Below are positions 18,537 through 54,762 of a stretch of 64,000 nucleotides of DNA, one piece after another. Source of the stretch: Patescibacteria group bacterium (GTDB lineage Bacteria; Patescibacteriota; Patescibacteriia; UBA10025; JAHIVO01); contig JBAZKE010000001.1 of NCBI GenBank assembly GCA_041650915.1, forward strand, positions 379,284 to 443,283. Reading direction: 5' to 3'. The translations under genes were made by a program, and so were the position numbers. The notes below the pieces were generated by a model. The model did not search any database. It was not told the DNA's origin and worked only from the letters and a program-made list of their open reading frames with translations. Position 1 is the first letter of the stretch. The number at the start of each line of letters is the position of its first letter.

Positions 18537-18610
18537 GCCGATGTAGCTCAGTTGGTAGAGCAACTCCATGGTAAGGAGTAGGTCGCCAGTTCAATTCTGG
18601 CCATCGGCTC
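18537..18610 (+). tRNA. tRNA-Thr (anticodon GGT)
   Basis: GCCGATGTAGCTCAGTTGGTAGAGCAACTCCATGGTAAGGAGTAGGTCGCCAGTTCAATTCTGGCCATCGGCT folds as a cloverleaf with anticodon loop AUGGUAA. Flanked by a 10-bp inverted repeat that extends the acceptor stem. No encoded CCA. Confidence 0.85.
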
Positions 18611-18667
18611 GGACGGGATAAATGCCGCCACTCCATGCCTGCCCCGTACATTGAGCGAAGCAAAATG

Positions 18668-18715
18668 ATGCGGGGGGTAAGGAGTAGGTCTGCGGTTCGA
18701 CTCCGCGCAACGGTT
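18668..18715 (+). pseudogene. tRNA 3'-half fragment (anticodon-stem 3' strand + T-arm + acceptor 3' strand)
   Basis: GGTAAGGAGTAGGTCTGCGGTTCGACTCCGCGCAACGG resembles the 3' half of the tRNA-Thr(GGT) above, with no matching 5' half. Partial 5' copies (TGTAGCYCAGYTGG x3) lie at 18481-18560. Confidence 0.5.
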
Positions 18716-18830
18716 GCAACGGGGAAAGCAATTTGACAGTCAAACATGGGTAGGTACCCCCGGCATTCGCCGGGACAGGCTCCGTGGTTTTTACCTCGGG
18801 CTTGGTGGACATGCCATACTCATATCTGGC

Positions 18831-18920
18831 GGGCGGGTAGGTACCGAAGTGGTCAAACGGGGCAGACTGTAAATCTGCTGGCTTCGGCCTTCGGGGGTTC
18901 GAATCCCTCCCTGCCCACCA
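18831..18920 (+). tRNA. tRNA-Tyr (anticodon GTA), long variable arm, CCA encoded
   Basis: GGGCGGG acceptor 5' strand, anticodon loop CUGUAAA, long variable arm, T-arm GGGGGTTCGAATCCCTC, 3' end CCTGCCCACCA. Flanked by about a 15-bp inverted repeat. Confidence 0.8.
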
Positions 18921-19290
18921 GATGTGAGTATGAGTAGCTGGCATACTGTTTGTGCCGCCGAAGGGCTGTATAAATCTGCTGGCCTCGGCCTTTAGGGGGT
19001 TCGAATCCCATGGGATTCGAACGGGCACGAACGAGGCGCAGCCGAGTGACAAACAATTCGAGCTTGCGCAGAATTGTTTGGTGCCCAGGACGAGAATCCC
19101 TCCCTGCCCACCAGATGTGAGTATGAGTAGCTGGCATACTGTTTGTGCCGCCGAAGGGCTGTATAAATCTGCTGGTTCCGGTCTTTTGGGGGTTTGCATC
19201 CCATGGGATTCGAACGGGCACGAACGAGGCGCAGCCGCAGGAGTATTTTTAAAACCTCATGACTCTTTAAAAAAGCTATCCGTTCGGACG
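18901..19290 (+). repeat. tandem ~195-bp duplication containing the tRNA-Tyr 3' end plus degenerate tRNA-Tyr-like sequence
   Basis: GAATCCCTCCCTGCCCACCAGATGTGAGTATGAGTAGCTGGCATACTGTTTGTGCCGCCGAAGGGCTGTATAAATCTGCTGG... occurs at 18901 and again at 19094. Each unit holds a degenerate anticodon arm (CTGTATAAATCTG) and a palindromic T-arm-like segment (GGGGGTTCGAATCCCATGGGATTCGAACGGG). Confidence 0.8.
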
Positions 19291-19291
19291 C

Positions 19292-19366
19292 GCCACCCTA
19301 GCTCAGTGGTAGAGCAACTGTTTTGTAAACAGTAGGTCGTCGGTTCGAATCCGACGGGTGGCTCCA
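19292..19366 (+). tRNA. tRNA-Thr (anticodon TGT), CCA encoded
   Basis: GCCACCCTAGCTCAGTGGTAGAGCAACTGTTTTGTAAACAGTAGGTCGTCGGTTCGAATCCGACGGGTGGCTCCA. Anticodon loop UUUGUAA. Confidence 0.85.
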
Positions 19367-19545
19367 GGCCCTAGCTCAGTGGGTCGAGACCACGAGCAAA
19401 CACAACTGCTTGTGTTTGCGAGGAGTCGAGACGGGCATGACGATGCGGGAACCGCCGGCATGCCCCGGAAGAGCAACTGTGGAGCCTATCCCGAGCGAAG
19501 TCGAGGGATAAACAGTAGGTCGTCGGTTCGAATCCGACGGGTAAC
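19367..19545 (+). pseudogene. tRNA-Thr-like pseudogene with a ~110-nt structured insertion between the D-arm and anticodon arm
   Basis: 5' part GGCCCTAGCTCAGTGGGTCGAG. The 3' part ATAAACAGTAGGTCGTCGGTTCGAATCCGACGGGT is identical to tRNA-Thr(TGT). The acceptor strands do not pair. The insert carries perfect hairpins (GCAAACACAA-CTGC-TTGTGTTTGC; GGGCATG...CATGCCC). Confidence 0.6.
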
Positions 19546-19685
19546 TTATCGGGTCGCCGCTCTGGCGGGTTACGTGTGGCTTGTCAAATAAGCTCCACTG
19601 CACCCCTTGTGCGCATGCCCCTCTTCCCAAAAAATGCGCACCATTTTTTGGGAGCACTGCAGAATTATTGATTAATCGCAATATT

Positions 19686-19841
19686 ATGTCACAAGACAAC
19701 ATCATCAAGCTCGAATGTACGGAGTGCAAACACATCAACTACCACTCGCACAAGAATAAAAAGCTGCACAAGGACCGGATTGAGATCAAGAAGCACTGTA
19801 AGTGGTGCAAAAAGCACACGATGCATAAAGAAACGAAGTAA
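19686..19841 (+). CDS. rpmG: 50S ribosomal protein L33
   Basis: [49 protein letters not shown] is an L33 zinc ribbon (CxxC...CxxC). Start at the internal ATG of track ORF 19581..19841. Confidence 0.85.
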
Positions 19842-19951
19842 TTTTGAAGACCTTTTTCGAAAGTAGCTTTCACTGTATTCCGAAATAAGCCGTATCGGCC
19901 ATCGCAGGTAACCCGAGACCTTTGGTTCGTAGTTGATTCGGAATTTTTTAT

Positions 19952-20026
19952 GGGGCTATAGTACAATGGCTAGTATAGCGGTCTCCAAAACCGTTGATCG
20001 AGGTTCGAATCCTCGTGGCCCCGCCA
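19952..20026 (+). tRNA. tRNA-Trp (anticodon CCA), CCA encoded
   Basis: GGGGCTATAGTACAATGGCTAGTATAGCGGTCTCCAAAACCGTTGATCGAGGTTCGAATCCTCGTGGCCCCGCCA. Anticodon loop CUCCAAA. Confidence 0.85.
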
Positions 20027-20175
20027 GAACTACCCGTCTCGGGGGCTTTTTGGTACGATGTTACAATAGCGTAACTAGCCAATGGATTCGAAAAGCAGCA
20101 GCGACCCTGAACTAAGTTCAGGGGAGCGCCGATGAATGCGAGTTTGCGCAGCATTCATCGCTGCTTATGGACCCG

Positions 20176-20240
20176 AATCCTCGTGGCCCCGCCAGAACTA
20201 CCCGTCACGGGGGCTTTTTGGTATGATGTTACAAAGGATC
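20176..20240 (+). repeat. direct repeat: second copy of the tRNA-Trp 3' end plus its downstream terminator
   Basis: GAATCCTCGTGGCCCCGCCAGAACTACCCGTC(T/A)CGGGGGCTTTTTGGTA(C/T)GATGTTACAA is present at 20006-20070 and again at 20176-20240 (att-like duplication). Confidence 0.75.
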
Positions 20241-28055: not shown

Positions 28056-28418
28056 TAAAAACCTCCAGAAAAATGAACGTTGATTGCGCACACCTCGTGT
28101 GTGCACGGTTTCTGTTTTTGAAAAAACACCGAAAGGTGCTTTTCAGTACTGTATAGCACGGTGGCTTTTCCGTGTCAAGGTGCCGTGCCTGTGTGCTGGC
28201 ACGGGTAAAGGAGAATTTTCATGTTTTCTTTTTACTTTCCTACAGCCGGAAAAATAACAAAAGGGTTCCGGGGGTATTTGATTCGCGAAAGTGCTGACAT
28301 TCGTTTTTTTAACGAATACGGCGCGAAGCATGCCCTCGAAGCCCCCTTTTCTTTAGAAATGATTGCATAGATAACTTTTATATATGCTTTATTTTTGCTA
28401 CAGTACCACTATAAAACT

Positions 28419-28919
28419 ATGAGGGTTCCCATACGAAAACCAGGGCAGTACACCCATGCAAAGCCCGACCGCAACGTGACCGCGGAAAAACTGCAGGAGT
28501 TCAAGCAGGAGCTCCGCAAACTGGTGCGCGTTGTCCGGCCTCCGGCGATCGCCGAGGTGAAGCGGCTTGCGGACCTCGGGGATTTTTCCGAAAATGCGGA
28601 GTACCAGATCGCGAAAGGCCGTTTGCGGGGCATCAACGCGCGCATCCTGGAGCTGGAAGGCGCGATCAAGTCCGCGATCGTCATCAGGCTGGGAAGTGCA
28701 ACCGGCCGCATCCGGATCGGCAGCCGCGTAACGGTACGGATGGACGGCGAGCAAAAAACGTACCGCCTCCTCGGCTCGGCGGAATCCGATCCGGGCAAAG
28801 GCGTTATCTCGCACGCGTCGCCGATCGGAATGGCCCTGGTCGGGAAAAAAGCGGGCGATATGTTCACCGTCACGCTCGCGAACAGGCAGGTGCAGTGCAC
28901 GGTGCTGAGCGTAACATAG
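28419..28919 (+). CDS. greA: transcription elongation factor GreA
   Basis: Coiled-coil N-domain (AEKLQEFKQELRKL) and C-terminal FKBP-like domain (GSAESDPGKGVISHASPIGMALVGKKAGD). Confidence 0.85.
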   Translation: MRVPIRKPGQYTHAKPDRNVTAEKLQEFKQELRKLVRVVRPPAIAEVKRLADLGDFSENAEYQIAKGRLRGINARILELEGAIKSAIVIRLGSATGRIRIGSRVTVRMDGEQKTYRLLGSAESDPGKGVISHASPIGMALVGKKAGDMFTVTLANRQVQCTVLSVT

Positions 28920-29028
28920 CGAACCGCCTTTCTTTGCATATGTTTTATTACAGAGCCGTCTGATTAAAAAAAAGAAAGGGGCAACTCGTGAGAGCTGCCC
29001 TTGTTTGTGGTTTGGTACGATTTTCGTT

Positions 29029-30234
29029 TCACCCGCACTGTGCAAGCGATTGGGTGATGTCCTCGATGAGGCGATCTACCGGTTCAAGGCCGATAGACAG
29101 CCGGACCAGGTCCGGGGTGACGCCCGCGGCGATCCGTACGTCTTCGGGAACACCGAGGTGGGTTGAACGTGCCGGCAGGATCGCCAGCGAGTGGTCACTG
29201 CCCAGGGACACGGTGTTGCCGTACACTACTTCGAGCGAGTTGACGAACATTTCCGCCGCAGCCGCGCCGCCTTTCAAGCGCAACGAGATGATTGATCCCG
29301 GTCCGGTGCACTGTGCGGCGTAGATTTCCGCCTGTACGCCGGTAAGGAGGGTCGAGTAATACACCTCCGCCACCTGACCGTGCTGGGCGAGCATGGACGC
29401 GATCTGTGCTGCCGACGCCGCCTCGTCCCGCATGCGGCCGAAGACATCCGCAATCGACTGCTCGAGATCGGCACACGCTGCCGGAGTATAAATCGGGCCG
29501 CTCGTGTACTGCAGGGAGCGGATGCACTTCATCAGCTCTCCCGAGTTCGTGAGGGCAACGCCGCCGAGCTGGCACGAATGCCCGCCCAGGAACTTGGTCG
29601 CGGAGTACACGACGATGTCCGCGCCGTGTTCAAACGGGTGCTGGAACAGGGGTCCCAGGAAGGTATTATCGACGACGATCAGCGCCGGCCCTTTCAGTCC
29701 CGGGTACTTCTTGGTGAGGTCGGCGATCTGCCGGATGGGAGAATGCCCGATTCGCGGGTTGTTCGGCGTCTCGAGGAAGACTGCACGCAGTTGGAACTGG
29801 TGTTCCAGCAGTGCCTGCTCGAATGCGGCGAGGTCGGTGGTATCGACCGCAACTGCGGTGATGCCGTACCGAGCGCACCATGTCCTGTAGAACTCATCGC
29901 TGCAACCGTACTCCGGCGTGGTGTACAGTATCGTATCGCCCTGTTGCGCGATCGCCATGATCGTGGTAAAAATCGCGGACATTCCCGAAGGAAATACCGC
30001 GGCTTCGGCTGCCCCGGGTTCCATTGCGACGAGCGCCCGGTACAGGCTGTCGTGGGTCGGAGTCTCAAACCGGGAGTAGATGAACCGCTGATCGCGCATT
30101 TCCTCGGGCATGGGCTGCAAACCCAGGAGCCATTGGAATCGAAGTTCGAGGTTAGCGACGCTGTCTGCCTGGTAGGTCGTCGCGGTGCATGTCGGCACAA
30201 CAATCCCGCCATACGGATCTCGTGTATGCTTCAT
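29029..30234 (-). CDS. Cys/Met-metabolism PLP-dependent enzyme (cystathionine gamma-synthase / beta-lyase / methionine gamma-lyase family)
   Basis: PLP-lysine block VVYSATKFLGGH and the family's typical length and organisation. Confidence 0.85.
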   Translation of the reverse strand: MKHTRDPYGGIVVPTCTATTYQADSVANLELRFQWLLGLQPMPEEMRDQRFIYSRFETPTHDSLYRALVAMEPGAAEAAVFPSGMSAIFTTIMAIAQQGDTILYTTPEYGCSDEFYRTWCARYGITAVAVDTTDLAAFEQALLEHQFQLRAVFLETPNNPRIGHSPIRQIADLTKKYPGLKGPALIVVDNTFLGPLFQHPFEHGADIVVYSATKFLGGHSCQLGGVALTNSGELMKCIRSLQYTSGPIYTPAACADLEQSIADVFGRMRDEAASAAQIASMLAQHGQVAEVYYSTLLTGVQAEIYAAQCTGPGSIISLRLKGGAAAAEMFVNSLEVVYGNTVSLGSDHSLAILPARSTHLGVPEDVRIAAGVTPDLVRLSIGLEPVDRLIEDITQSLAQCG

Positions 30235-30327
30235 GGCATACCTCCTATAATGTAGGGTTCAGTTTTTTTTGGTTTTCAGTCTATCATACGTATTTTTGCG
30301 TGCCATGTCAAGCGTAATATTACAGGC

Positions 30328-30486
30328 ATGGCAAGGTCCGATCCGGGCAAAGGCGTTATCTCGCACGCGTCGCCCTTGGGCAGTGCGCTTCTAGGCAAGC
30401 AGGCAGGAGGGCGGTTTACGGCCAGGATTGCCGATGCAGACAAGCAGTGTGAGGTGGTGAGGGGGAATAATTCGGATGAGGGAATA
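30328..30486 (+). pseudogene. greA C-terminal domain fragment (partial duplicate)
   Basis: Encodes MARSDPGKGVISHASPLGSALLGKQAGGRF.... A 38-nt stretch (TCCGATCCGGGCAAAGGCGTTATCTCGCACGCGTCGCC) is identical to greA at about 28783-28820. Confidence 0.7.
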
Positions 30487-30546
30487 TAAAACATGGCCGA
30501 CGCATCAAAGCACCAGCCATGTTTGTATTCTTCACGAATGACGGAA

Positions 30547-31176
30547 TCAAAGGTTGACGTTGAAGTACAACCTTGGGTACTCGTACCTCGTGAAGTATAC
30601 GAGCCACAGGTTGACCTTAGAAAAGGCGAGGTCAATCCGCGGTCCGATGTCGAACAGCTCCGGCGTGCCGGTTCTGTCCGTGTAGTATTCGGTTTCGAAT
30701 CCGGCGAAGAGCCCCTCGTCGGCGACGTCGCTCATCCCGCGAAGCCGTACTTCCGCGAGCGTCCAGGTAAGTAGTCCCTTATCCCGGAAGTAATAGTCGC
30801 ACTGTGAACCTTGTTTGAGCCACAGCGCGCCGACCTTGATGAGACCGTCGGTTCGGAGCGAGACGAGACCGGATAGCGTTTGTTCCTCCTGAGAACCCTT
30901 GGCACCGGCCAGGAATCCCAGTGTCGTCCAGTCGCCGCGCTTCTTGTCGAGTACCTTGTCAATAAGGCCGGCGTAGAAGAGCCAGGGGAACGCATCCGAG
31001 TTGACGTCAGCCAGTATAAGCTGGCCGTACGTTCCGAATCCGCGGATAACCGAGGAATCGGTACAGATATTCAGCTGCAGTTGCAACTGAGGTTTCGTAT
31101 CGTCAGCACCAGCGATCCCACAGCAGACGAGCACGGCCATGAGCGTAACGAATACGGAGCAATGTCTGAGTTTCAT
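30547..31176 (-). CDS. secreted beta-rich protein (signal peptide; C-terminal aromatic-rich strand)
   Basis: N-terminal signal-like MKLRHCSVFVTLMAVLVCCGIAGA; ends ...YPRLYFNVNL. Confidence 0.45.
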   Translation of the reverse strand: MKLRHCSVFVTLMAVLVCCGIAGADDTKPQLQLQLNICTDSSVIRGFGTYGQLILADVNSDAFPWLFYAGLIDKVLDKKRGDWTTLGFLAGAKGSQEEQTLSGLVSLRTDGLIKVGALWLKQGSQCDYYFRDKGLLTWTLAEVRLRGMSDVADEGLFAGFETEYYTDRTGTPELFDIGPRIDLAFSKVNLWLVYFTRYEYPRLYFNVNL

Positions 31177-32812: not shown

Positions 32813-32958
32813 GCGCACCTCACTGTGTTTGGGGTTTATGTTTATTGTAAGCAATGTTAATAAAGAACCGGACATCTGTCAATGCAGACGTTCGAACCGT
32901 TCATGGGGCATTGATCAATAGGATTGATTTTTTCCGCATTGGTTTGTATGATGAAGCC

Positions 32959-34323
32959 ATGCGGATACATACGGCGGCATATCGCACGGGGGCTATAAAA
33001 AAATTATTTTTGTTTGTTTGTGGCTGCAGCTGTACCGCATTGGTTGCGGTTGCCGGCTCTATGGCTGTCGAGGCTGCTGTTGATGATTGCCCTTCAGGGT
33101 ACGAGTGGCAGCGGATGAGCGGCGTGGGGTGCGTCCAGATAGACTGCGCTGATTACGCACATGCGCACTATTCGTATACGAGTGCGTGCATTTGCGGCTC
33201 GGCCGGAAGCATCAATGAAAACCCGGCTGATCCGAACACGGGCTGCTACCATTCGAGTGATTATACGGCCTGCCCTGGATGCTTGTACGCGTGCATCCAT
33301 GCCGACGAAGAATGCCCTCAGCCCCCTGGAGAAGTGCCCGTCAGTACTGCGAATAGTGCGAATGCAAACAGGAATACAAACGCCATTGCCAATGCGAATA
33401 GTGCCGTCAACACGAATACCGCGACAAGCCAGAATATAAATGTTAGCAACGCCGGCACGAATATGCCGACGCTTACCACGGGCAACGCCGTTGCGGCAGC
33501 GTCCTGCGCTGATGAGTGCAGTAAGTACCTTCGCGGGCATGCGAATGCGGCTGTTGTGTCGGCTGAGGGTGAACCCCCGAACTGCAAGTGCCAGGTCGAT
33601 GTGCGCGGCACGGGCGGCGAGATCACCCAAACGATTTCAACCGACGGCCCGATTCAGACAACCTACGTATTCGATCCGGCAACCGGCGCCCTTGTTTCAC
33701 GGGAGCGGGTTGACCGGCGCGAACAGGCGGAGCGCATCCGACGGCGCTTGGGGTACCGGTATACTGAGGAGCAGATTGACGCGCTCCTCGCACCGGAAAA
33801 GATCGACCAGTGGTTCCAGGGCCAAATGAATCCGATTGAAACGTCTACCAGCGGATGGCATCCGCAGTTTTGGTGGCAGCATTTCGTTGCGCTCCTCGAC
33901 CACGGGACCAATGGCTCGAGCGCTGATTTCGTCGACGTGCACCATTATGGCCGGTGCGGGGATTCGATGCAGTGGCTTGAGCGGAACCTGTCGGGGGAGC
34001 TGCATTTAGGCGATGATCCGGATGAGCCCGGGCAAAAGCACGAGGCCATGCTGTCGATCACCGGCGAGAAGTGGGGAAATTTTCTGAACCATACGTCAGT
34101 GCTGATCCGGCCGGCAGGGATTACGAATGACGAGTGGGAAGATATTGTTAAAGAATTGAAAGCGAAGTCCGGCGGCCAGGAAGACAATCCCGGCATTGAG
34201 CCTGGCAATTTGCAGCAAATCGATCCGCGCCTGCTGGACGCGAAAGTGCTCGACCCGTACAAAAAGCAGATTACGACCGTACGCGAATTCATCAAGGGCT
34301 GGTCGTATATCCGCGTCAGTTAA
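32959..34323 (+). CDS. secreted Cys-rich protein with Asn/Thr-rich low-complexity linker
   Basis: Signal-like LFLFVCGCSCTALVAVAGSMA, a Cys-rich module, a NANTN-type linker, then a C-terminal globular region. Start at the ATG at 32959 downstream of a promoter-like motif. Confidence 0.5.
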   Translation: MRIHTAAYRTGAIKKLFLFVCGCSCTALVAVAGSMAVEAAVDDCPSGYEWQRMSGVGCVQIDCADYAHAHYSYTSACICGSAGSINENPADPNTGCYHSSDYTACPGCLYACIHADEECPQPPGEVPVSTANSANANRNTNAIANANSAVNTNTATSQNINVSNAGTNMPTLTTGNAVAAASCADECSKYLRGHANAAVVSAEGEPPNCKCQVDVRGTGGEITQTISTDGPIQTTYVFDPATGALVSRERVDRREQAERIRRRLGYRYTEEQIDALLAPEKIDQWFQGQMNPIETSTSGWHPQFWWQHFVALLDHGTNGSSADFVDVHHYGRCGDSMQWLERNLSGELHLGDDPDEPGQKHEAMLSITGEKWGNFLNHTSVLIRPAGITNDEWEDIVKELKAKSGGQEDNPGIEPGNLQQIDPRLLDAKVLDPYKKQITTVREFIKGWSYIRVS

Positions 34324-34337
34324 AGCTGTATGCGCCT

Positions 34338-34829
34338 ATGAAAAAAATCCGCACCATCGCCATGACAGTTATCATCCTCGCCGTTGCGCTCGGCGCGGGA
34401 TACCTTGCACTGCGGCACGTGCCGGCCGACACGTATGCGGTCCAGGAAATCGACGGTACGGCGCACTGGGGGTCGATCTCGGGATCGGTCAGCTATCCGA
34501 GCGAGATGCTTCCGTTCATGGGGATCTGCGCGGAAACGGTTGACGGCGCTGACCAGTATTGCACGTACGAGCTGGTCCCCGACGGCAGTTCTTTGAGTGG
34601 CTACGGGTATGAACTTGCCGTTCCGCCGGATGAATATTATGTGTTCGCGCACGAGGTGGCGGCTGGAAATGAATCAGTCGGGTATGTGGATGAATACCGC
34701 GCGTACTATTCCGAATTCGTGACGTGCGGACTCGAGTATACGTGCCCATCGCACAAGCCCATACCAGTTGAGGTTGCGCGCAACCAGTATCTTCAGGGCA
34801 TCGATCCTACGGATTGGTATAATCAGTAA
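34338..34829 (+). CDS. hypothetical secreted protein
   Basis: 163 aa, signal peptide MKKIRTIAMTVIILAVALGAGYLA. Confidence 0.5.
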   Translation: MKKIRTIAMTVIILAVALGAGYLALRHVPADTYAVQEIDGTAHWGSISGSVSYPSEMLPFMGICAETVDGADQYCTYELVPDGSSLSGYGYELAVPPDEYYVFAHEVAAGNESVGYVDEYRAYYSEFVTCGLEYTCPSHKPIPVEVARNQYLQGIDPTDWYNQ

Positions 34830-35090
34830 TGAGGGACGAACCGAGGGTTCTTCCCTCATCAGCTCCTTTTTCCTTCAACGTATCGCTCAGCCCGGGACCC
34901 TATAACCCGTGGCTTCGCGATGGTTTAAAAACATTCAAGGGACGAACCGAGGGTTCTTCCCTCATCAGCTCCTTTTTCCTTCAACGTATCGCTCAGCCCG
35001 GGACCCGTAGATCCTGTCATTCGACAGGACAGGCCCGTGAGCTCGCGATGGTTTAAAAACATTCAAGGGACGAACCGAGAGATTTGAAGC
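34830..35090 (+). repeat. intergenic tandem repeat (about 2.3 copies of a ~107-132 bp unit with variable insert)
   Basis: CGCGATGGTTTAAAAACATTCAAGGGACGAACCGAGGGTTCTTCCCTCATCAGCTCCTTTTTCCTTCAACGTATCGCTCAGCCCGGGACCC is repeated at 34834 and 34941. Contains the GAGGG-TTCTT-CCCTC hairpin. The second unit has an extra CCTGTC-ATTC-GACAGG hairpin. Confidence 0.8.
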
Positions 35091-35114: not shown

Positions 35115-35327
35115 ATGGCAGATCAAGAAGGTGCACCGGCTAAAAAAAATCTCCTGAAACAATGGTGGTTTTGGGTTATCGTTGCCGCAATTCTTGGAGC
35201 AGTGTTATTCGTTCCGTACATCTGCGAAACGGCAAACTGCATGCCCTGCCCGGAAGGCGTTGTCTGCGCTCCGTGCCCTGGGCCGGAATGCCAGGGGCTC
35301 GCGGGGTATAGTATTGACAGGCTGTAG
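35115..35327 (+). CDS. small membrane Cys-rich peptide
   Basis: 70 aa: TM segment, then C-x4-C-x2-C-x5-C-x2-C-x3-C. Confidence 0.4.
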   Translation: MADQEGAPAKKNLLKQWWFWVIVAAILGAVLFVPYICETANCMPCPEGVVCAPCPGPECQGLAGYSIDRL

Positions 35328-40592: not shown

Positions 40593-41468
40593 ATGACTAT
40601 GACTATGACAGATTACAGTGAGTTTCAAAAAAGATTCAAACTATTAGCGAGTAAAAATAAACATCTCGTAATTAACACCTTATCCAATATATTTACGATG
40701 AGGTTAATTGGTAATAAAACTCACGGTGATTTAGCAGAGATAGGCATGGTTGAATTTATTAACCAGTTCATGTATGACTTTAAAAGTATTCATGTTGGGA
40801 AAGATTTATTCCGGGCAAAAGAACATGAAGAGGATATAGTTGTTATTAATGAAATTACCAAAACTAAATTTCCCGTAAGTTTAAAGGCATATGGAGATGG
40901 GCCGCTACAACTTTCAACTGATTGTGACCAAAAAATGTTTCCATTTCTTGAGAAACAAGGTAAAAATATTGTAAATTCTAACAAAATAGAAGAGGTGTTT
41001 AAATCAAAAGAATTCGCAGCATTTGATGCAATAAATGTTATGCCACTTATTTATGATGAGAAAAAACAGAGATGTAATATTATGATTTTCGATCATAATA
41101 AAGCTATAAATGAAACTAGAAGGATTGTTTTCATTAATTTCAAAGAAAAATTTGATTTTGAAACCAAAAAAGTAATTCCAGGGAATTCTCGATCACACCC
41201 AATTTTTATGTTTCTTGATACTGGAGGAAATTATATATGTGAGGTTAGATATGGAGGCGCTTCAGCAAATGCACTTCAACGTGGTTTTTGGACTCATACA
41301 AAAAATGCACTTTCATTTTTTGATTCACTCACAAACGGCTGGATTGACTATTCTCATAATCAGACACTAGTAAAGTTGTTTAGCCTCGCACTTAATAGTT
41401 CTGAGCAGGGTCATAAATTAGCTAATGAAATTCTTCAGAAAGACATCGACAGATTAAAGACTTTATGA
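40593..41468 (+). CDS. putative type II restriction endonuclease (DpnII/MboI-family-like)
   Basis: 291 aa, AT-rich. Its stop overlaps the MTase start (ATGA). The block EVRYGGASANALQ resembles the DpnII-family EVNFYSGSGSKLN block; similarity judged by eye only. Confidence 0.4.
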   Translation: MTMTMTDYSEFQKRFKLLASKNKHLVINTLSNIFTMRLIGNKTHGDLAEIGMVEFINQFMYDFKSIHVGKDLFRAKEHEEDIVVINEITKTKFPVSLKAYGDGPLQLSTDCDQKMFPFLEKQGKNIVNSNKIEEVFKSKEFAAFDAINVMPLIYDEKKQRCNIMIFDHNKAINETRRIVFINFKEKFDFETKKVIPGNSRSHPIFMFLDTGGNYICEVRYGGASANALQRGFWTHTKNALSFFDSLTNGWIDYSHNQTLVKLFSLALNSSEQGHKLANEILQKDIDRLKTL

Positions 41469-42577
41469 CTGACCAGCAATTGAACATTTTTGGTAATTCC
41501 ACCATAACCACACCAAAAACTGAAGGTATTAAGTATGCTGGGTCAAAGTTAAAAATCTTGCCATATATAATTGAATTAGTAAGCGATTTAAAGGGTGTAA
41601 AAAAAATCTTAGATGGCTTTACTGGCACAACTCGTGTTGCACAAGCTATGGCACAACTTGGATATGACGTAACCGCCAGTGATATATCAATATGGTCGGA
41701 AGTATTTGCTAATTGTTATTTAAAGTCGAAGAAACCCGATAAATTTTATCAGGATATTCTAGACCATTTAAACAAGCTAAAGGGTTGTGATGGTTGGTAT
41801 ACTAGACATTATGGCGCCAAACCAAAAGAGAATAAAAAGCCATTTCAGGAAAAAAATACCCGTAAATTAGATGCGATCAGAGATGAAATTGAGAAGATTA
41901 ATTTACAATGGGTTGATAAATGTGTTATTTTGACCTCATTAATTAATGCATTAGATTCGGTTGATAGCACACTGGGTCATTATGTTTCATATCTCTCAAA
42001 TTGGTCTAAACGTTCGTATAATGATTTATATTTAAAATTACCAAAAAGAATTCAAAGTCCTGGCAAACATAAAGTGATTAAAGGAGATATTTTTGAAACA
42101 ATTAATAATAATGAATTTGATTTAGTGTATTTTGATCCACCGTATGGCTCAAACAATGAAAAAATGCCACCCAGCAGAGTCCGTTATGCCTCTTATTATC
42201 ATATTTGGACGACGGTTATCAAACATGATAAACCGGTAGTTTTTGGTAAGGTAAATCGAAGAGAAGATAGTAGGGACTTGGTAGCTGGTTCTGTATTTGA
42301 GGATTTTAGGAAAGATAATAATGGTTCATTTATTGCAATGGAAGCATTAAGAAGATTAGTCAAAGAAACAAAAGCACGATATATATTATTGTCATACAGT
42401 TCTGGCGGAAGAGCAACAAAAAAGGAACTTAATGAGATAATTGATGAATCGGGTAAACTATTAAAAGCAGTTGAAATTAATTATAAAAAGAACGTAATGG
42501 CTAATATGCGATGGACACATGAATGGATAAACAGTGATGGAAAGCATTCGGAATACCTTTTTTTAATGAAAAAATGA
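41465..42577 (+). CDS. D12-class (Dam-like) N6-adenine DNA methyltransferase
   Basis: N-terminal IKYAGSKLKILPYII (KWAGGK-type motif I) and catalytic VYFDPPYG (DPPY). Confidence 0.8.
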   Translation: MTDQQLNIFGNSTITTPKTEGIKYAGSKLKILPYIIELVSDLKGVKKILDGFTGTTRVAQAMAQLGYDVTASDISIWSEVFANCYLKSKKPDKFYQDILDHLNKLKGCDGWYTRHYGAKPKENKKPFQEKNTRKLDAIRDEIEKINLQWVDKCVILTSLINALDSVDSTLGHYVSYLSNWSKRSYNDLYLKLPKRIQSPGKHKVIKGDIFETINNNEFDLVYFDPPYGSNNEKMPPSRVRYASYYHIWTTVIKHDKPVVFGKVNRREDSRDLVAGSVFEDFRKDNNGSFIAMEALRRLVKETKARYILLSYSSGGRATKKELNEIIDESGKLLKAVEINYKKNVMANMRWTHEWINSDGKHSEYLFLMKK

Positions 42578-42589
42578 TAGGACAATGTT

Positions 42590-42745
42590 ATGGCAATAGA
42601 AAAGGTTAGTTTTATCGCGACAAAGTATAAAAACAAACCGACAATGGTACGTTTTTATACTAAAAAAGGTGATGTTGTAAGATTTTCAGCTCAAAAAAAA
42701 GCACCCGTAAAGCAGGTTGTTGAATTTAAAGCTAAGTCAAAATAA
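42590..42745 (+). CDS. small basic protein (51 aa)
   Basis: MAIEKVSFIATKYKNKPTMVRFYTKKGDVVRFSAQKKAPVKQVVEFKAKSK. Below the ORF-track length cut-off; lies between the MTase and rusA. Confidence 0.35.
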   Translation: MAIEKVSFIATKYKNKPTMVRFYTKKGDVVRFSAQKKAPVKQVVEFKAKSK

Positions 42746-42748
42746 ATT

Positions 42749-43198
42749 GTGAGCACTACATATTTTGATTACAGTTTTGGGTTGTCAGAAATTATTCCAT
42801 CAGGCAATCGTCAAAAAAGTGATAGTGCTTGTGCGTTTTATAAAGTTGTTGGTCAAGCGTTAAAAGATATTGATAAACAAGGAATCTTCCCAACAAAAAA
42901 GTTAGTTTTTATTTTTATTTTACAGTTTTTTTCGAATCAAGAAGAATATCAAAAACGAGATATTGATAATATGTGCAAAACCATGCTGGCGGCATTAAAA
43001 AATAAGATATATGAGGACGACGTACAAGTAAAAACGTTATTAATCAGTAAACAAATAAATAGTAAGATTCCGGTAAACTTCGTTTACATCGGAATAAAGT
43101 TATCCGATTACAAGGATAATACCGGAATGGTGAAAGTAAATATTAACAATGCCATATCATTGTTTCAGGGCTCTGTTAAACAAGCAGTTGAAAAGTAA
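42749..43198 (+). CDS. rusA: RusA-family Holliday junction resolvase (phage-type)
   Basis: QKRDIDNMCKTMLAALKNKIYEDDVQV matches the RusA catalytic block [28 protein letters not shown]. Confidence 0.7.
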   Translation: MSTTYFDYSFGLSEIIPSGNRQKSDSACAFYKVVGQALKDIDKQGIFPTKKLVFIFILQFFSNQEEYQKRDIDNMCKTMLAALKNKIYEDDVQVKTLLISKQINSKIPVNFVYIGIKLSDYKDNTGMVKVNINNAISLFQGSVKQAVEK

Positions 43199-43237
43199 TA
43201 TAATACGGTAGATACTATATGAGTGCTAATCCTAGCA

Positions 43238-43267
43238 CTTGTTTTGTTATTGGTGGGGGAGTAGGAT
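43238..43267 (+). promoter_or_regulatory. conserved promoter module, copy f (TTGTTT-17-TAGGAT)
   Basis: CTTGTTTTGTTATTGGTGGGGGAGTAGGATGG, 10 nt before the ATG at 43277. Confidence 0.55.
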
Positions 43268-43276
43268 GGAGAATAT

Positions 43277-44365
43277 ATGGTAAGCATTTTCGAACAAATT
43301 TCAATTTTATTACAAGGACAGCCTTGGATGGTTTTTGGTGGTTATAATTTAAAACTCCAGGGGATTGATAATAGCGCAAATGATATTGATATTGTTACGA
43401 CTGATAAGGGGATTGGGATAATAGCCAAAACGAGAAAAGAAAAAGTTAATCGAGGAAATAATTGGAAAGGATGTAAATTTGTCGTAAATGGACTGCAAAT
43501 TGACGTAATCACTGAGGAGGGTTTTACTCAACAATTTTTTCAAAAATACTTACAAGAAAACAGAATAAACATTATATATTATGATGGCGTACCAGTATTT
43601 TGTTTAAAATTATCTGAGCAACGAAAAGGATACGAAGCAATTTTAGCCGCTCATAAGGGGAGCAATGACCCAACTCTTAAGATAGAATTATTGAAAAAAT
43701 ATGAGGAAAGTAATAAATTCACCCCCGAGCAATGGTATGTTGTGTGGAAAAGAATTTTCGAAGAAAATTTATTAGCCGACTTATATAAACTAGTCAGTAA
43801 TCAACCGCAGCAAAGTGGAGGTTTGAATTTCGTTATTGTACTGATGTGCCTCGTAACTATGGATTTAGTGGGGAAGCTTATTTGCGGATCAAATAACAAA
43901 GACGCAATAAGGGCATTTATTAAATCGGAGTTTTTTCAAATACCTAAAGCTTACAATGGAGACGACTTTGCGGATATAATTAATACTGAATTAAGAAATA
44001 ACCTGGCTCATGCCTTTTTCCCTGAAAGGAACATTGCAATTGGCAGAAATACACCTTTTCAACATTTTAATATTATACCAGTAGTCGGTTCTGAAAGAAA
44101 ATTATTTTGGATTGATGCTGATGAACTGCACCGGGATCTTTTGCAATCGTTAGATCAATATAAAGCGGCTTTAATTGAAGATAAAAAACAGGACGGCGAT
44201 AGACTCAGGTCATTATTTGTTAAATATGTTAATGAAAATATGTTAACTGAGTCGATAAATCTTAAAGGGTTTATGGAAAAGAATTATAAGCTCGATGTAC
44301 ATAATTATCCAATTAGTTCAGATAAGGTTACTCATACTACAACGTTACCGCCTGAAACAAAATAA
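43277..44365 (+). CDS. fused minimal nucleotidyltransferase (MNT) - HEPN-like protein
   Basis: N-terminal WMVFGGYNLKLQGIDNSANDIDIV (hGG-x13-DhD NTase motif, Lnu-like). C-terminal ELRNNLAHAFF fits the HEPN R-x4-H motif. Confidence 0.5.
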   Translation: MVSIFEQISILLQGQPWMVFGGYNLKLQGIDNSANDIDIVTTDKGIGIIAKTRKEKVNRGNNWKGCKFVVNGLQIDVITEEGFTQQFFQKYLQENRINIIYYDGVPVFCLKLSEQRKGYEAILAAHKGSNDPTLKIELLKKYEESNKFTPEQWYVVWKRIFEENLLADLYKLVSNQPQQSGGLNFVIVLMCLVTMDLVGKLICGSNNKDAIRAFIKSEFFQIPKAYNGDDFADIINTELRNNLAHAFFPERNIAIGRNTPFQHFNIIPVVGSERKLFWIDADELHRDLLQSLDQYKAALIEDKKQDGDRLRSLFVKYVNENMLTESINLKGFMEKNYKLDVHNYPISSDKVTHTTTLPPETK

Positions 44366-52179: not shown

Positions 52180-54762
52180 ATGGAAGCTGTACGAAGGAAC
52201 CATCCGCGATCCGTACGGGGTGGCGGTATTTTATTTGCAGTAGGGCTCGTGGCACTCGGCTTTTGTGCCGCCGGGATTGTCGCACCGGGCGAAGCGGACG
52301 CACAGAGCATCAGCTGGACGCCAAATAGTGCCGCTGGATTTGATGATGCGGCGAACGTTTACACCTATTCGCTCGTCGAGTATGGGGGCAGCCTGTACAC
52401 CGGTGCGAGCAACTTCGTGACCGGTGCTGAAATTTGGCGCTACGACGGCACGGACTGGGCACAGGTGAACGACGACGGATTCGGAAATGCAGAAAATGTT
52501 GAGGCAACAAGCCTTGCGGTGTTCGGCGGGATGCTTTATGCCGGAACGTCAAACCTCACGACCGGTATTGAAATTTGGCGCTACGACGGCACGGACTGGG
52601 CACAGGTGAACGACGACGGATTCGGGGATGCCAACAACAACATGGCATACGATCTCTTCGAGTTCGATGGCAAACTGTACACCGGAGCCACCAACTACGC
52701 GACCGGCGTTGAAATGTGGGCGTATGACGGCACGGACTGGGCACAGGTGAACGACGACGGATTCGGGGACGCAGGCAATCTTTACGGGCTGGCCATGCTC
52801 GAATACGCAGGGAGCTTGTACATCGGTACGCTCAGGGAAATTGATAACGCGGGTGCCGAGCTCTGGGCGTACGATGGCACCATCTGGGCGCAGGTCGGTA
52901 CGGGGGGCTTCGGCAATGTGAATAATATCGGCTTCATGGATCTCGCGTCGTTCGACGGTGCGCTCTTTATCAGCGCCCAGAATCCAATCGAGGGAGGAGA
53001 GGTGTGGCAGTACGACGGCACGGATTTTGAGCAGGTGAGCTCCGGTGGCTTCGATGACGCGAATAATGCCAGCGTATTTTCCTTGGAAGTATACAACCAT
53101 ACCCTGTATGGAGGCACGACAAATTACGCAACCGGAACAGAACTATGGTCGTATGACGGATCCCAGTGGGAGCAGGTGAACGAGGACGGTTTTGGCCAAG
53201 CAGACAATTTTAGCGCTCCGCTGCTGACCGCCATCGGCGGCGTACTGTACGCGGGCACGGCAACGGGTGACATCGGCACCGAGATCTGGCAGGGCGAGCT
53301 GCCCGATGGCAATGGGCCCTCGGTCAGCGAACAAGTGCCGGCCAGCGGTGACAGCGGCGTCGCCGTTGATTCTACGATATCTTTTTTCCTTGATGATGCG
53401 GTATACGACGTCGATAGCACGACGCTTGACGTATCCGTTGCAGGGCAGGGTGGGATCGTTGGCGGTGAGTTTGCGGATGGCTTTTCCGGCTCGATTGCTG
53501 AGAGCGGCGTCGGCAGCTTCGACGTAACGATCGATTCCGATCATGAGTTCGCATACGGCAGCACGGTCGAGGTGGCAGTGACGGTGAGTGACGCACGGGG
53601 AAATGAGAGTACAGCCGCGTGGTCGTTCCGTGCCACGGCTGACCGCCCGTCCCTCGGGATCGTCATGTCTCCTGCGTCATCAGGCGGCCCGAACATCCGG
53701 GTCGTCGACGAGCAGGGCGCCCAGATTTCATCATTTTTCGCGTATGACCAGTCTCTCCGCATGGGGCTCGAAGTGGCGCAGGCGGATATCGACGGCGACG
53801 GCACGAATGAGATTATCGTCACTCCCGGCAGCGGAGTCGAGTCGCGGATCAAGGCGTTCGAACTTGACGGCACGGAGATCGCCTCCGCGCTCGCTTTTAA
53901 TGAGGGATTCACGGGCGGCGTGACCGTAGCGGTCGGCGATTTCGACGGTGACCTCCGCGAGGAAATCGCGGTCGCGCCGATATCCGGCGGAGGCCCGAAC
54001 ATCCGGATCTACTCGCTCAATGACGAAGGGGACGGGCTCGAGCTCGTTGACTGGTTTTTCGCGTACGATACCGCGTTCCGTGGGGGCGTCAACCTCGTAG
54101 CCGGTGACACCGATGGTGATACGGTCGATGAGATTATTACCGCACCGCGGAGCCAGGGCGGCCCCGACGTGCGCGTGTTCTCGTACAACGCGGCGTCAGG
54201 TGCATTTGAGCTCACGGCGAACGTCATGGCATACCAGTCGGCATACCACGGCGGCGTGCAGCTCGCGGCAGGCGATATCGACGGCGACGGGGCGGATGAC
54301 GTCGTTGTCTCGCCGTACCTCAACGGCGGCCCGAACATCCGCGTGTACACGATAAACGTGAGTGGTGACCTCGAGCTTCTCACCTGGGCTATGGCATACG
54401 ATGCAACGTACCGCGGCACGCTCTCCATGTCGGTCGGCGATATCGACGGCGACGGCACAGGCGAGGTCGTACTCGCGCCGAAAACACTCGGCGGCCCGAA
54501 CATACGCATCTTCCAGTATGAAAATTCGTCGCTGGCCCTCATGGACTGGTTCATGGCGTACCAGGACAACTTCCGCGGCGGCGTGAATCTGTTCGTCGCT
54601 GACGTAGACGGGGACGGCTTCGATGAGGTGATAGCCTCGCCGGCTTCGCAGGGCGGCCCAAACGTGCGCGTGTACAGCATGGATTCCAGCACGAGGGTTT
54701 TGGATTCCTGGTTTTGGGCGTTTCCTGAGGGTTTCCGCGGCGGCGTTAATTTTGGCAAGTAA
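52180..54762 (+). CDS. large secreted surface protein: N-terminal ~10x (YDGTDWxQVNDDGFG) propeller-like repeats, Ig-like middle region, C-terminal FG-GAP/VCBS-like Ca-binding repeats
   Basis: Signal/TM at the N-terminus. Repeats EIWRYDGTDWAQVNDDGFG are encoded by near-identical DNA (52431-52490, 52572-52630, 52724-52770). C-terminal D-x-D-G-D-G-x-x-E repeats alternate with GGPNIRV. Confidence 0.7.
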   Translation: MEAVRRNHPRSVRGGGILFAVGLVALGFCAAGIVAPGEADAQSISWTPNSAAGFDDAANVYTYSLVEYGGSLYTGASNFVTGAEIWRYDGTDWAQVNDDGFGNAENVEATSLAVFGGMLYAGTSNLTTGIEIWRYDGTDWAQVNDDGFGDANNNMAYDLFEFDGKLYTGATNYATGVEMWAYDGTDWAQVNDDGFGDAGNLYGLAMLEYAGSLYIGTLREIDNAGAELWAYDGTIWAQVGTGGFGNVNNIGFMDLASFDGALFISAQNPIEGGEVWQYDGTDFEQVSSGGFDDANNASVFSLEVYNHTLYGGTTNYATGTELWSYDGSQWEQVNEDGFGQADNFSAPLLTAIGGVLYAGTATGDIGTEIWQGELPDGNGPSVSEQVPASGDSGVAVDSTISFFLDDAVYDVDSTTLDVSVAGQGGIVGGEFADGFSGSIAESGVGSFDVTIDSDHEFAYGSTVEVAVTVSDARGNESTAAWSFRATADRPSLGIVMSPASSGGPNIRVVDEQGAQISSFFAYDQSLRMGLEVAQADIDGDGTNEIIVTPGSGVESRIKAFELDGTEIASALAFNEGFTGGVTVAVGDFDGDLREEIAVAPISGGGPNIRIYSLNDEGDGLELVDWFFAYDTAFRGGVNLVAGDTDGDTVDEIITAPRSQGGPDVRVFSYNAASGAFELTANVMAYQSAYHGGVQLAAGDIDGDGADDVVVSPYLNGGPNIRVYTINVSGDLELLTWAMAYDATYRGTLSMSVGDIDGDGTGEVVLAPKTLGGPNIRIFQYENSSLALMDWFMAYQDNFRGGVNLFVADVDGDGFDEVIASPASQGGPNVRVYSMDSSTRVLDSWFWAFPEGFRGGVNFGK

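Follow-up and report, generated by a model that had tools for sequence, protein, structure and literature searches.

The 64-kb stretch of DNA analysed here (the window) comes from a contig of 679,916 bp that belongs to an uncultured member of the Patescibacteria (Candidate Phyla Radiation, CPR). It contains an intact gene for the elongation factor GreA, the product of which is 100% identical to a protein named GreA/GreB family elongation factor by NCBI. Downstream of greA lies a gene for a pyridoxal phosphate (PLP)-dependent enzyme, and on the far side of this gene there is a second, partial greA 3′ end. The two greA sequences share an exact 38-nt repeat, which we call the core; the DNA between the two core copies is referred to as the insert or cassette, and the partial greA sequence beyond it as the stub. 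The features of the locus, in order along the window, are as follows.

28419..28919, plus strand: intact greA, 166 aa (Pfam GreA_GreB_N, 1e-17, and GreA_GreB, 3e-21; NCBIfam GreA models)
28785..28822, plus strand: core copy 1 (attL-like), 38/38 identity to 30337-30374; encodes SDPGKGVISHASP inside greA
28823..28919, plus strand: replacement greA 3′ end, termed 3′A, of 32 codons plus stop; presumed to have arrived with the cassette
28970..29000, no strand assigned: G+C-rich hairpin that probably terminates both greA and the PLP gene (bidirectional); the minus strand has a T-run, the plus strand an A-run/T-rich flank
29029..30234, minus strand: PLP gene, 401 aa, intact (Cys_Met_Meta_PP, PF01053, E=4e-89, 299 bits against a cut-off of 27)
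~30241-30247, minus strand: AGGAGG ribosome-binding site of the PLP gene, as read from the sequence
30283..30311, minus strand: sigma-70-like promoter of the PLP gene, inside the insert (TTGACA, 17-nt spacer, TATGAT; 11/12 consensus)
30307..30336, plus strand: possible weak greA-like remnant (VKRNITGMAR) just 5′ of core copy 2; uncertain, not significant
30337..30374, plus strand: core copy 2 (attR-like), exact duplicate of 28785-28822
30375..30489, plus strand: displaced greA 3′ end, termed 3′B, of 38 codons; degenerating

The 38-nt core and the two greA 3′ ends

The window has two exact copies of the core sequence, TCCGATCCGGGCAAAGGCGTTATCTCGCACGCGTCGCC, and no more: direct repeats at 28785-28822 and 30337-30374, 1552 nt apart from start to start. 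An earlier examination of this DNA, made from the letters alone (the sequence-only reading), had claimed that 38 nt of greA recur exactly about 1.5 kb downstream, and on realignment the identity proved to be far beyond chance. We estimate the probability of an exact 38-mer repeat arising by chance in 64 kb at ~3e-14. The nature of the repeat is most clearly seen by comparing the two greA frames codon by codon. Within the core, 12/12 full codons match at every position, the third among them. Of the 31 codons that follow, just 2 are the same, and all the synonymous pairs differ at the third base. At the third-position identity of 26% found in this flanking sequence, 12/12 matches would be expected with a probability of 0.26^12, or ~1e-7. 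Since all 12 third positions match within the core, against 26% beyond it, the 38-nt block is a discontinuity that protein conservation cannot explain, and marks a recombination joint.

The left boundary of the second copy is also sharp, with no significant greA homology to the left of it by either Pfam alignment or tblastn. The tblastn extension in this direction gave ~4 identities in 25 residues, which is not significant. The Pfam alignment of the extended stub translation reached profile position 23, for a gain of only 2.9 bits over 10 residues.

The second core copy lies in frame within an open reading frame (ORF) of 53 aa at 30328..30489 on the plus strand (MARSDPGKGVISHASPLGSALLGKQAGG...). 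The translation matches the C-terminal positions 33-73 of Pfam GreA_GreB (its last 41 positions) with E=3.6e-8, and BLASTP against GreA gave 27/43 identities (E=8e-18, GreA residues 121-163), confirming the earlier claim that the copy heads a fragment of the GreA C-terminus. As a protein query, the 53-aa fragment retrieved only itself. The same region, 30328-30489, is annotated by NCBI as a 65-aa GreA/GreB family elongation factor (P0242) and called as 53 aa by JGI and ENA (P0241). This 53- or 65-aa 'GreA/GreB family' ORF is a displaced gene end, or pseudogene fragment, and no gene.

Outside the core, 3′A and 3′B are 65%, 68% and 26% identical at codon positions 1, 2 and 3, respectively (8/31 at the third position), where 30% third-position identity would be expected from base composition alone. 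Because position 3 is at the random level and positions 1 and 2 have been kept, this pattern points to two long-diverged functional gene ends, which by their sequences evolved for a long time under purifying selection as the ends of working GreAs, in separate lineages. The same codon-position pattern excludes a local duplication followed by decay as the source of the two ends.

The downstream end has since degenerated. Over the same 46-residue segment, the Pfam GreA_GreB score is 34 bits for 3′B and 48 bits for 3′A, compared with 45-51 bits for four relatives. Three conserved columns of 3′B hold residues absent from 119 relatives (D/E to G, K/R to A and I/V to G), there are at least five radical replacements in all, and the stop codon lies 7 codons beyond the family position. 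The conservation score of 3′B is 3.2 standard deviations below the family mean, with only 1/120 sequences scoring lower.

For 3′A, family conservation is normal (rank 17/120), and it is the relationship to the nearest relative that is unusual. The 3′A segment is only 45% identical to that relative (P0002), which is 82% identical upstream of the core. Where the upstream identity is 80-90%, the expected identity of the 3′A segment is 71±11%, and 0/36 calibration pairs fell below 48%.

The insert and the greA neighbourhood in relatives

Counted from copy 1, the 1552-nt unit consists of the core, the greA end with its stop codon, the hairpin, the PLP gene, its ribosome-binding site, its promoter and a further 25 nt, after which copy 2 begins. 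The PLP gene is the sole credible gene between the core copies and is convergent to greA, as the sequence-only reading had described. The PF01053 match spans profile positions 14-380 of 381, from which the product is predicted to be a PLP-dependent enzyme of Cys/Met metabolism, in the cystathionine gamma-synthase / methionine gamma-lyase family. The assignment is at family level: the best NCBIfam model, PRK07049, scored below its cut-off and no NCBIfam equivalog reached its cut-off. The translation contains the motif SATKFLGGH, which we take to be the PLP-lysine motif of the family.

The promoter upstream of the PLP gene is the only promoter-like site in 28100-30700. On the far side of the gene, the terminator-like site at 29000-28979 has 9 pairs, 6 of them G-C, followed by CTTTCTTTTT, and lies 29 nt beyond the PLP stop codon. 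With its own promoter and terminator inside the cassette, the insert has the make-up of a self-contained one-gene expression cassette that carries a spare greA end. No riboswitch or other RNA was detected at the locus by Rfam.

The G+C content, third-position G+C content (GC3) and codon usage of the cassette are all host-like. Compositional foreignness was therefore rejected as an argument about the cassette; its composition says nothing on origin beyond excluding a recent distant donor. Codon usage was expressed as a log-odds score, for which 32-codon windows of the host average 0.19±0.16. The score was 0.31 for the 5′ part of greA, 0.43 for the core, 0.35 for 3′A (0.345, the 84th percentile) and 0.28 for the PLP gene. 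For 3′B it was −0.08, the 6th percentile of host windows.

The window GreA is 65-75% identical to GreAs of metagenome-assembled genomes (MAGs) labelled Patescibacteria, Magasanikbacteria, Falkowbacteria and Kerfeldbacteria. A scan of 185,579 species genomes yielded 80 GreA loci, with a best identity of 67%, and a search of 5.8 billion proteins gave a best match of 75%. In all, ~85 related greA loci were compared; these include L085-L087, taken from assemblies, whose GreAs are the three closest (72-75% identity). Neither the PLP gene nor a second GreA C-terminal fragment was found within 6 kb of greA in the 80 species-representative loci or in L085-L087; in these relatives, greA is followed by unrelated genes.

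The surroundings of greA differ among these loci in other ways. The start of greA and recX overlap in L087; the recX of the window is 2 kb upstream, separated by two extra genes. Homologues of the window genes at 32854..34829 (hyp489-hyp163) lie immediately upstream of greA in L003 and L004, and an HI0933-like gene is ~2 kb downstream of greA in L003 and L087 and 26 kb downstream in the window. The differing positions of recX, hyp489-hyp163 and the HI0933-like gene indicate that the greA neighbourhood is heavily rearranged, and the relatives appear too distant for the ancestral site to be reconstructed. A search of metagenome contigs with the right-flank protein, hyp209, returned no relatives.

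Homologues of the PLP enzyme, 45-63% identical, are present in other CPR-like genomes. The closest three (63%, 55% and 50%) are all in other contexts, and the neighbours of the homologues include prs (L089, L090/L091), a STAS-domain gene (L083/L084, L088) and a DEAD-box helicase gene (L082). One homologue (L091) and one greA locus (L002) are found in the same MAG. In none of the ~85 related greA loci, and in none of the 6 PLP-homologue loci, does a PLP gene adjoin greA. Since it never does so in relatives, the position of the PLP gene inside the greA end can be taken as derived and, so far, unique. This bears on the earlier suggestion that the PLP gene is acquired cargo: the derived position speaks for it, and the host-optimal codons mean that the gene is no recent import from a distant donor.

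We also observed that a second organism in the same sample, with 53% G+C (L083/L084; JGI 3300029288, Logan SRR8542065), has the 55%-identical PLP homologue. Its gene belongs to a conserved block that also includes a heliorhodopsin gene, peptidase M29, RidA and peroxiredoxin. Co-occurring populations thus share this PLP enzyme family.

Candidate routes to the arrangement

The arrangement could have arisen by Campbell-type insertion of a small circle at the 38-bp core, most likely through a site-specific recombinase that is no longer linked, and we rate this as slightly better than an even bet. A 1,552-bp circle, comprising the core, the 32-codon greA 3′ end, the bidirectional terminator and the PLP gene with its own promoter, would have entered the chromosome by one reciprocal crossover within the 38-bp stretch of greA. 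The product would run from the resident greA 5′ part through the core, the imported 3′ end, the PLP gene and the second core to the old 3′ end. As the insert supplies a substitute 3′ end, greA would be kept intact; the old end would be left as an untranslated or useless stub, free to decay, and the PLP gene would be expressed from its own promoter. Because a single crossover with a circle places the circle-borne end right after the resident 5′ part, 3′A would be the imported end and 3′B the displaced original. The present greA would then be a chimera of a resident 5′ part and core (28419-28822) and a cassette-borne 3′ end.

The sharpness and shortness of the identity block favour a recombinase of the integrase type, the gene for which may have been deleted from a formerly larger element, unless the enzyme acted in trans. 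What remains would be an att-flanked, recombinase-less segment, with the two cores as putative att sites, comparable to a cis-mobilizable element (CIME). The sequence-only reading had likewise proposed an element that integrated with a replacement 3′ end. The exact core, the diverged and selected ends, the downstream decay and the poor fit of 3′A to its nearest relative all support that proposal; no recombinase is present in the 64 kb, and the element is one deduced from its scar.

Several observations weigh against insertion of a circle. Neither the cassette nor the ~50 ORFs of the 64-kb window yielded an integrase, transposase or other recombinase in Pfam scans. The collections searched contained no empty site, intact parent element or second greA case; for the empty site, this is explained by the nearest GreA being only 75% identical. 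The supposedly imported 3′A and the PLP gene rank with the sequences closest to the host in codon usage and the supposedly native 3′B fits poorly, so that by composition alone the downstream stub would be called the foreign piece. The core has no change at all beside a decaying 3′B, and by a rough estimate zero changes would occur by chance with a probability of ~0.07. Finally, there is no detailed explanation of how 38 bp could be identical between an element and a host coding sequence immediately beside saturated sequence.

The codon data could be reconciled with insertion if the event was not recent or if the donor was compositionally similar, with selection keeping the expressed parts at, or bringing them to, host usage as the stub decays. 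Either the insert has long been resident or its donor resembled the host enough to have the same codon usage; it is no fresh distant import. The unchanged core beside 3′B reflects either an event of moderate age combined with luck, or identity kept by recombination between the repeats.

The odd codon usage of the stub can be read in another way, with greA and the PLP gene as native neighbours. A second greA, either of ancient divergence or gained by horizontal transfer, would once have stood downstream of the PLP gene; the stub would be what is left of it after deletion of its 5′ part, and a short gene-conversion tract from the live greA would later have made the 38 nt identical. Such a history fits the uniform, host-optimal codons of greA (5′ part, core and 3′A) and the PLP gene, among which the stub is the odd one out. 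The weak hint of greA-like sequence for ~10 codons upstream of the stub core (+2.9 bits) is also what a conversion tract might leave, and one relative (L072) has two greA genes within 3 kb. The L072 genes, however, are full-length, of different GreA subtypes and in opposite orientation, and so provide no model for the locus; a tandem-paralogue origin patterned on this pair was rejected on the same grounds. Moreover, a GreA C-terminal stub was seen in 0/85 loci, flanks that are only ~55% identical would give conversion no stretch of identity in which to start, 3′A is further from its nearest relative than a native end should be, and the PLP gene is never a neighbour of greA in relatives. We regard a second greA as an unlikely source of the stub.

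Host-like codons and a missing recombinase are equally what would be expected if no mobile element had been involved. A piece of chromosome from a related donor, carrying a greA 3′ part and a convergent PLP gene, could have been circularized or taken up and then integrated by RecA-type homologous recombination at the only stretch of sufficient identity. About 38 nt is close to the minimal length for RecA-dependent exchange, which counts in favour of this route, and the codon usage of the PLP gene and 3′A would suit a donor of the same high-GC lineage. The required donor arrangement, greA convergent with the PLP gene, was seen in no genome, however. A donor sharing both codon usage and 38 nt with the host should not be synonymous-saturated right beside the core, and exchange of this kind would more often replace sequence than duplicate it. 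Homologous recombination with a related donor therefore seems to us improbable.

The junctions themselves can be followed in the reads. An independent Logan k=31 unitig (L001, run SRR8542065, 1574 nt) equals window positions 28793..30366 exactly; it begins 30 nt before the end of copy 1 and stops 30 nt into copy 2. The unitig breaks inside the repeat at both ends because a k=31 graph breaks at repeats of 31 nt or longer. The junctions from the core to 3′A and from the region upstream of the PLP gene to the core thus exist in reads, which is compatible with the integrated form and also with an empty site plus a circle. The contig could accordingly be an artefact of assembly or a mixture, in which an uninterrupted greA (5′ part, core and 3′B) coexists with a separate 1.55-kb circle or tandem array and the assembler joined the molecules at the shared 38-mer; the organism has been seen in one sample only. 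All four junction types are needed either way, and the two inner ones are present. In addition, 38 nt is shorter than the k-mers and reads usual for a 680-kb MAG contig and should have been spanned, and a circle of 1.55 kb would be unlikely to be maintained in the absence of a replication gene. An artefact is in our view very improbable. For an explanation not considered so far we allow a small chance.

If a circle did insert, the further question is whether greA 3′ ends act as attachment sites more generally, as the sequence-only reading had suggested. The results do not bear this out. Among 122 ORFs downstream of greA in relatives, which fall into 140 Pfam families, there was no recurrent integrase. 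A degenerate pattern of the core had 0 matches in JGI metagenome contigs and 0 in viral contigs (IMG/VR), GreA had no relatives in viral contigs, and tblastn against phage records returned only host-contaminated or unrelated matches. No report of greA as an attachment site was found in the searchable literature. With no stub in 85 loci, no recurrent integrase and no viral or literature support, we rejected greA as a general attachment site.

Two possible links between the locus and tRNA genes were also rejected. The left edge of the core has GAATCCGA in common with tRNA-Thr and might mimic a tRNA T-arm, in which case a tRNA-targeting integrase could have used greA as a secondary site; by unbiased local alignment, 19% of random 50-nt windows reach such a score. 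A shared hairpin-loop motif, GAGYTTGCGCAG, occurs in inserts beside tRNA-Tyr and tRNA-Trp and not at greA, and with 21/100 shuffles matching it is not above chance.

The closest known parallel is the icd gene of Escherichia coli, into which prophage e14 inserts. With e14 in place, icd takes its 3′ end from the prophage, and its original end survives as the C-terminal pseudogene icdC (PMC13626634); recombination between icd and icdC would give a chimeric gene (PMC13626634, citing Hill et al. 1989). As with e14 and phage 21 at icd, the greA insert sits in the 3′ end of a housekeeping gene, brings a substitute end and leaves the old end downstream in direct orientation. Direct repeats flank the insert, with one copy inside the target gene, and a non-identical replacement 3′ end keeps the ORF intact while the displaced end persists. 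The integrase expected beside the att site is missing, the PLP enzyme gene being the only gene in the insert. The e14 prophage, 15 kb long, encodes its own integrase and is excised upon SOS induction, whereas the insert described here is 1.55 kb long, with one metabolic gene and no recombinase. The two icd ends of e14 also differ by few, mostly synonymous changes, whereas the greA ends are synonymous-saturated.

In their reduced content, CIMEs provide a second comparison. These elements have lost their integration and transfer genes and kept attL and attR (PMC6323972), and are decayed derivatives of ICEs (integrative and conjugative elements) or IMEs (integrative and mobilizable elements) (PMC7563491). 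The CIMEs and microCIMEs of streptococci, for example at the fda 3′ end, likewise occupy the 3′ end of a protein gene and are flanked by att sites. The greA insert has no integration or transfer genes and its cores are 38/38 identical, which is consistent with a function as att sites. In contrast to the greA insert, CIMEs are recognized through a known ICE or IME with the same att site and can be mobilized after accretion. Here no parent element, integrase or second case is known, and the host belongs to the Patescibacteria, with no described ICEs at greA. No element using greA, which could be the parent of such a CIME, was found in the 85 related loci, in viral contigs or in the searchable literature.

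The likeness to integron gene cassettes is functional only: these consist of a single ORF of ~1-1.5 kb with a recombination site, and are thought to move as a small circle by means of a recombinase encoded elsewhere. In contrast, the greA locus has no attC-like imperfect palindrome, intI, attI or array, the insert includes a promoter of its own, and part of a housekeeping gene makes up its recombination site. An integron gene cassette was therefore rejected, there being no long imperfect palindrome at the cassette ends, no integrase in the window and a promoter inside the insert.

The wider window and the meaning of the locus

Other parts of the window have repeats or unusual composition of their own. 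Three adjacent plus-strand genes at 40593-44365 have outlying codon usage, with log-odds of −0.33 to −0.36 compared with 0.05 to 0.30 for the others. These are o291, a D12-class N6-adenine DNA methyltransferase gene (41465..42577) and o362. As a candidate for recent acquisition, the region is much clearer than the greA cassette, and it is possibly a restriction-modification island.

An intergenic tandem repeat at 34800-35080, downstream of a 163-aa gene, contains two copies of a 69-nt unit (34832-34900 and 34938-35006) with 100% identity, and three occurrences of a related 46-nt piece with 106/128-nt spacing. It is followed at 35115..35327 by a small ORF for a Cys-rich membrane protein, relatives of which are near greA in L004 and L002. 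A 42-nt motif, GGTTTGGGGTTGTTTTGTCGTTGGTGGGGGAGTAGAATGGGG, occurs five times (36768, 37423, 39432, 43230 and 54837) with 64-100% identity, mostly just 5′ of an ORF start, and looks like a promoter or ribosome-binding-site module shared by a set of genes. The gene at 52180-54762 for an 860-aa FG-GAP/Big_5 repeat protein has several families of internal direct repeats of 141-165 nt. Its product is an ordinary repeat-domain surface protein, and the gene is the source of most of the long repeats in the window.

In the region 18537-20234, all four tRNA genes have a partial duplicate of their 3′ part 106-193 nt downstream.

18570-18617 and 18676-18723: tRNA-Thr(ggt) duplicate, 73% identity
18901-19044 and 19094-19237: tRNA-Tyr duplicate, 95% over 144 nt, with further tRNA-Tyr-like pieces inside
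19326-19359 and 19509-19542: tRNA-Thr(tgt) duplicate, 34 nt exact, preceded by an apparent D-arm piece with insertions
20006-20066 and 20174-20234: tRNA-Trp duplicate, 97% over 61 nt, including 40 nt beyond the tRNA end

ARAGORN and Rfam call only four intact tRNAs there. The partial duplicates could be integration micro-scars, tandem duplications or disrupted tRNA pseudogenes.

A joint reading of the greA and tRNA regions would have the cassette still mobile, as a minimal single-gene unit moved by a trans-acting recombinase at the 3′ ends of housekeeping genes. Each move would swap the C-terminal end of GreA between two versions, and the tRNA partial duplicates would be micro-scars left by the same system. 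We hold this combination to be quite improbable. If true, it would amount to an undescribed CPR cassette system that couples the gain and loss of metabolic genes to allele switching of a transcription factor.

The insertion type itself, in which a replacement 3′ end is supplied, is known; what is new is greA as the target, the reduction of the insert to one metabolic gene and the CPR host. As there is no recombinase, empty site or second example, the locus does not change the understanding of any mechanism. Patescibacteria have tiny genomes with almost no amino-acid metabolism, and to our knowledge little has been established about how they gain genes. If the cassette arrived as proposed, it used the same replacement-3′-end trick as coliphage 21 and e14 at icd, and greA would be added to the protein genes whose 3′ ends receive insertions of this kind. 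Once free of its recombinase, an element of this type could then be reduced, in its final state, to one gene. The locus would thus be a clean and, in principle, datable case in which one metabolic gene was slotted into the neighbourhood of an essential gene and the host gene was left undamaged.

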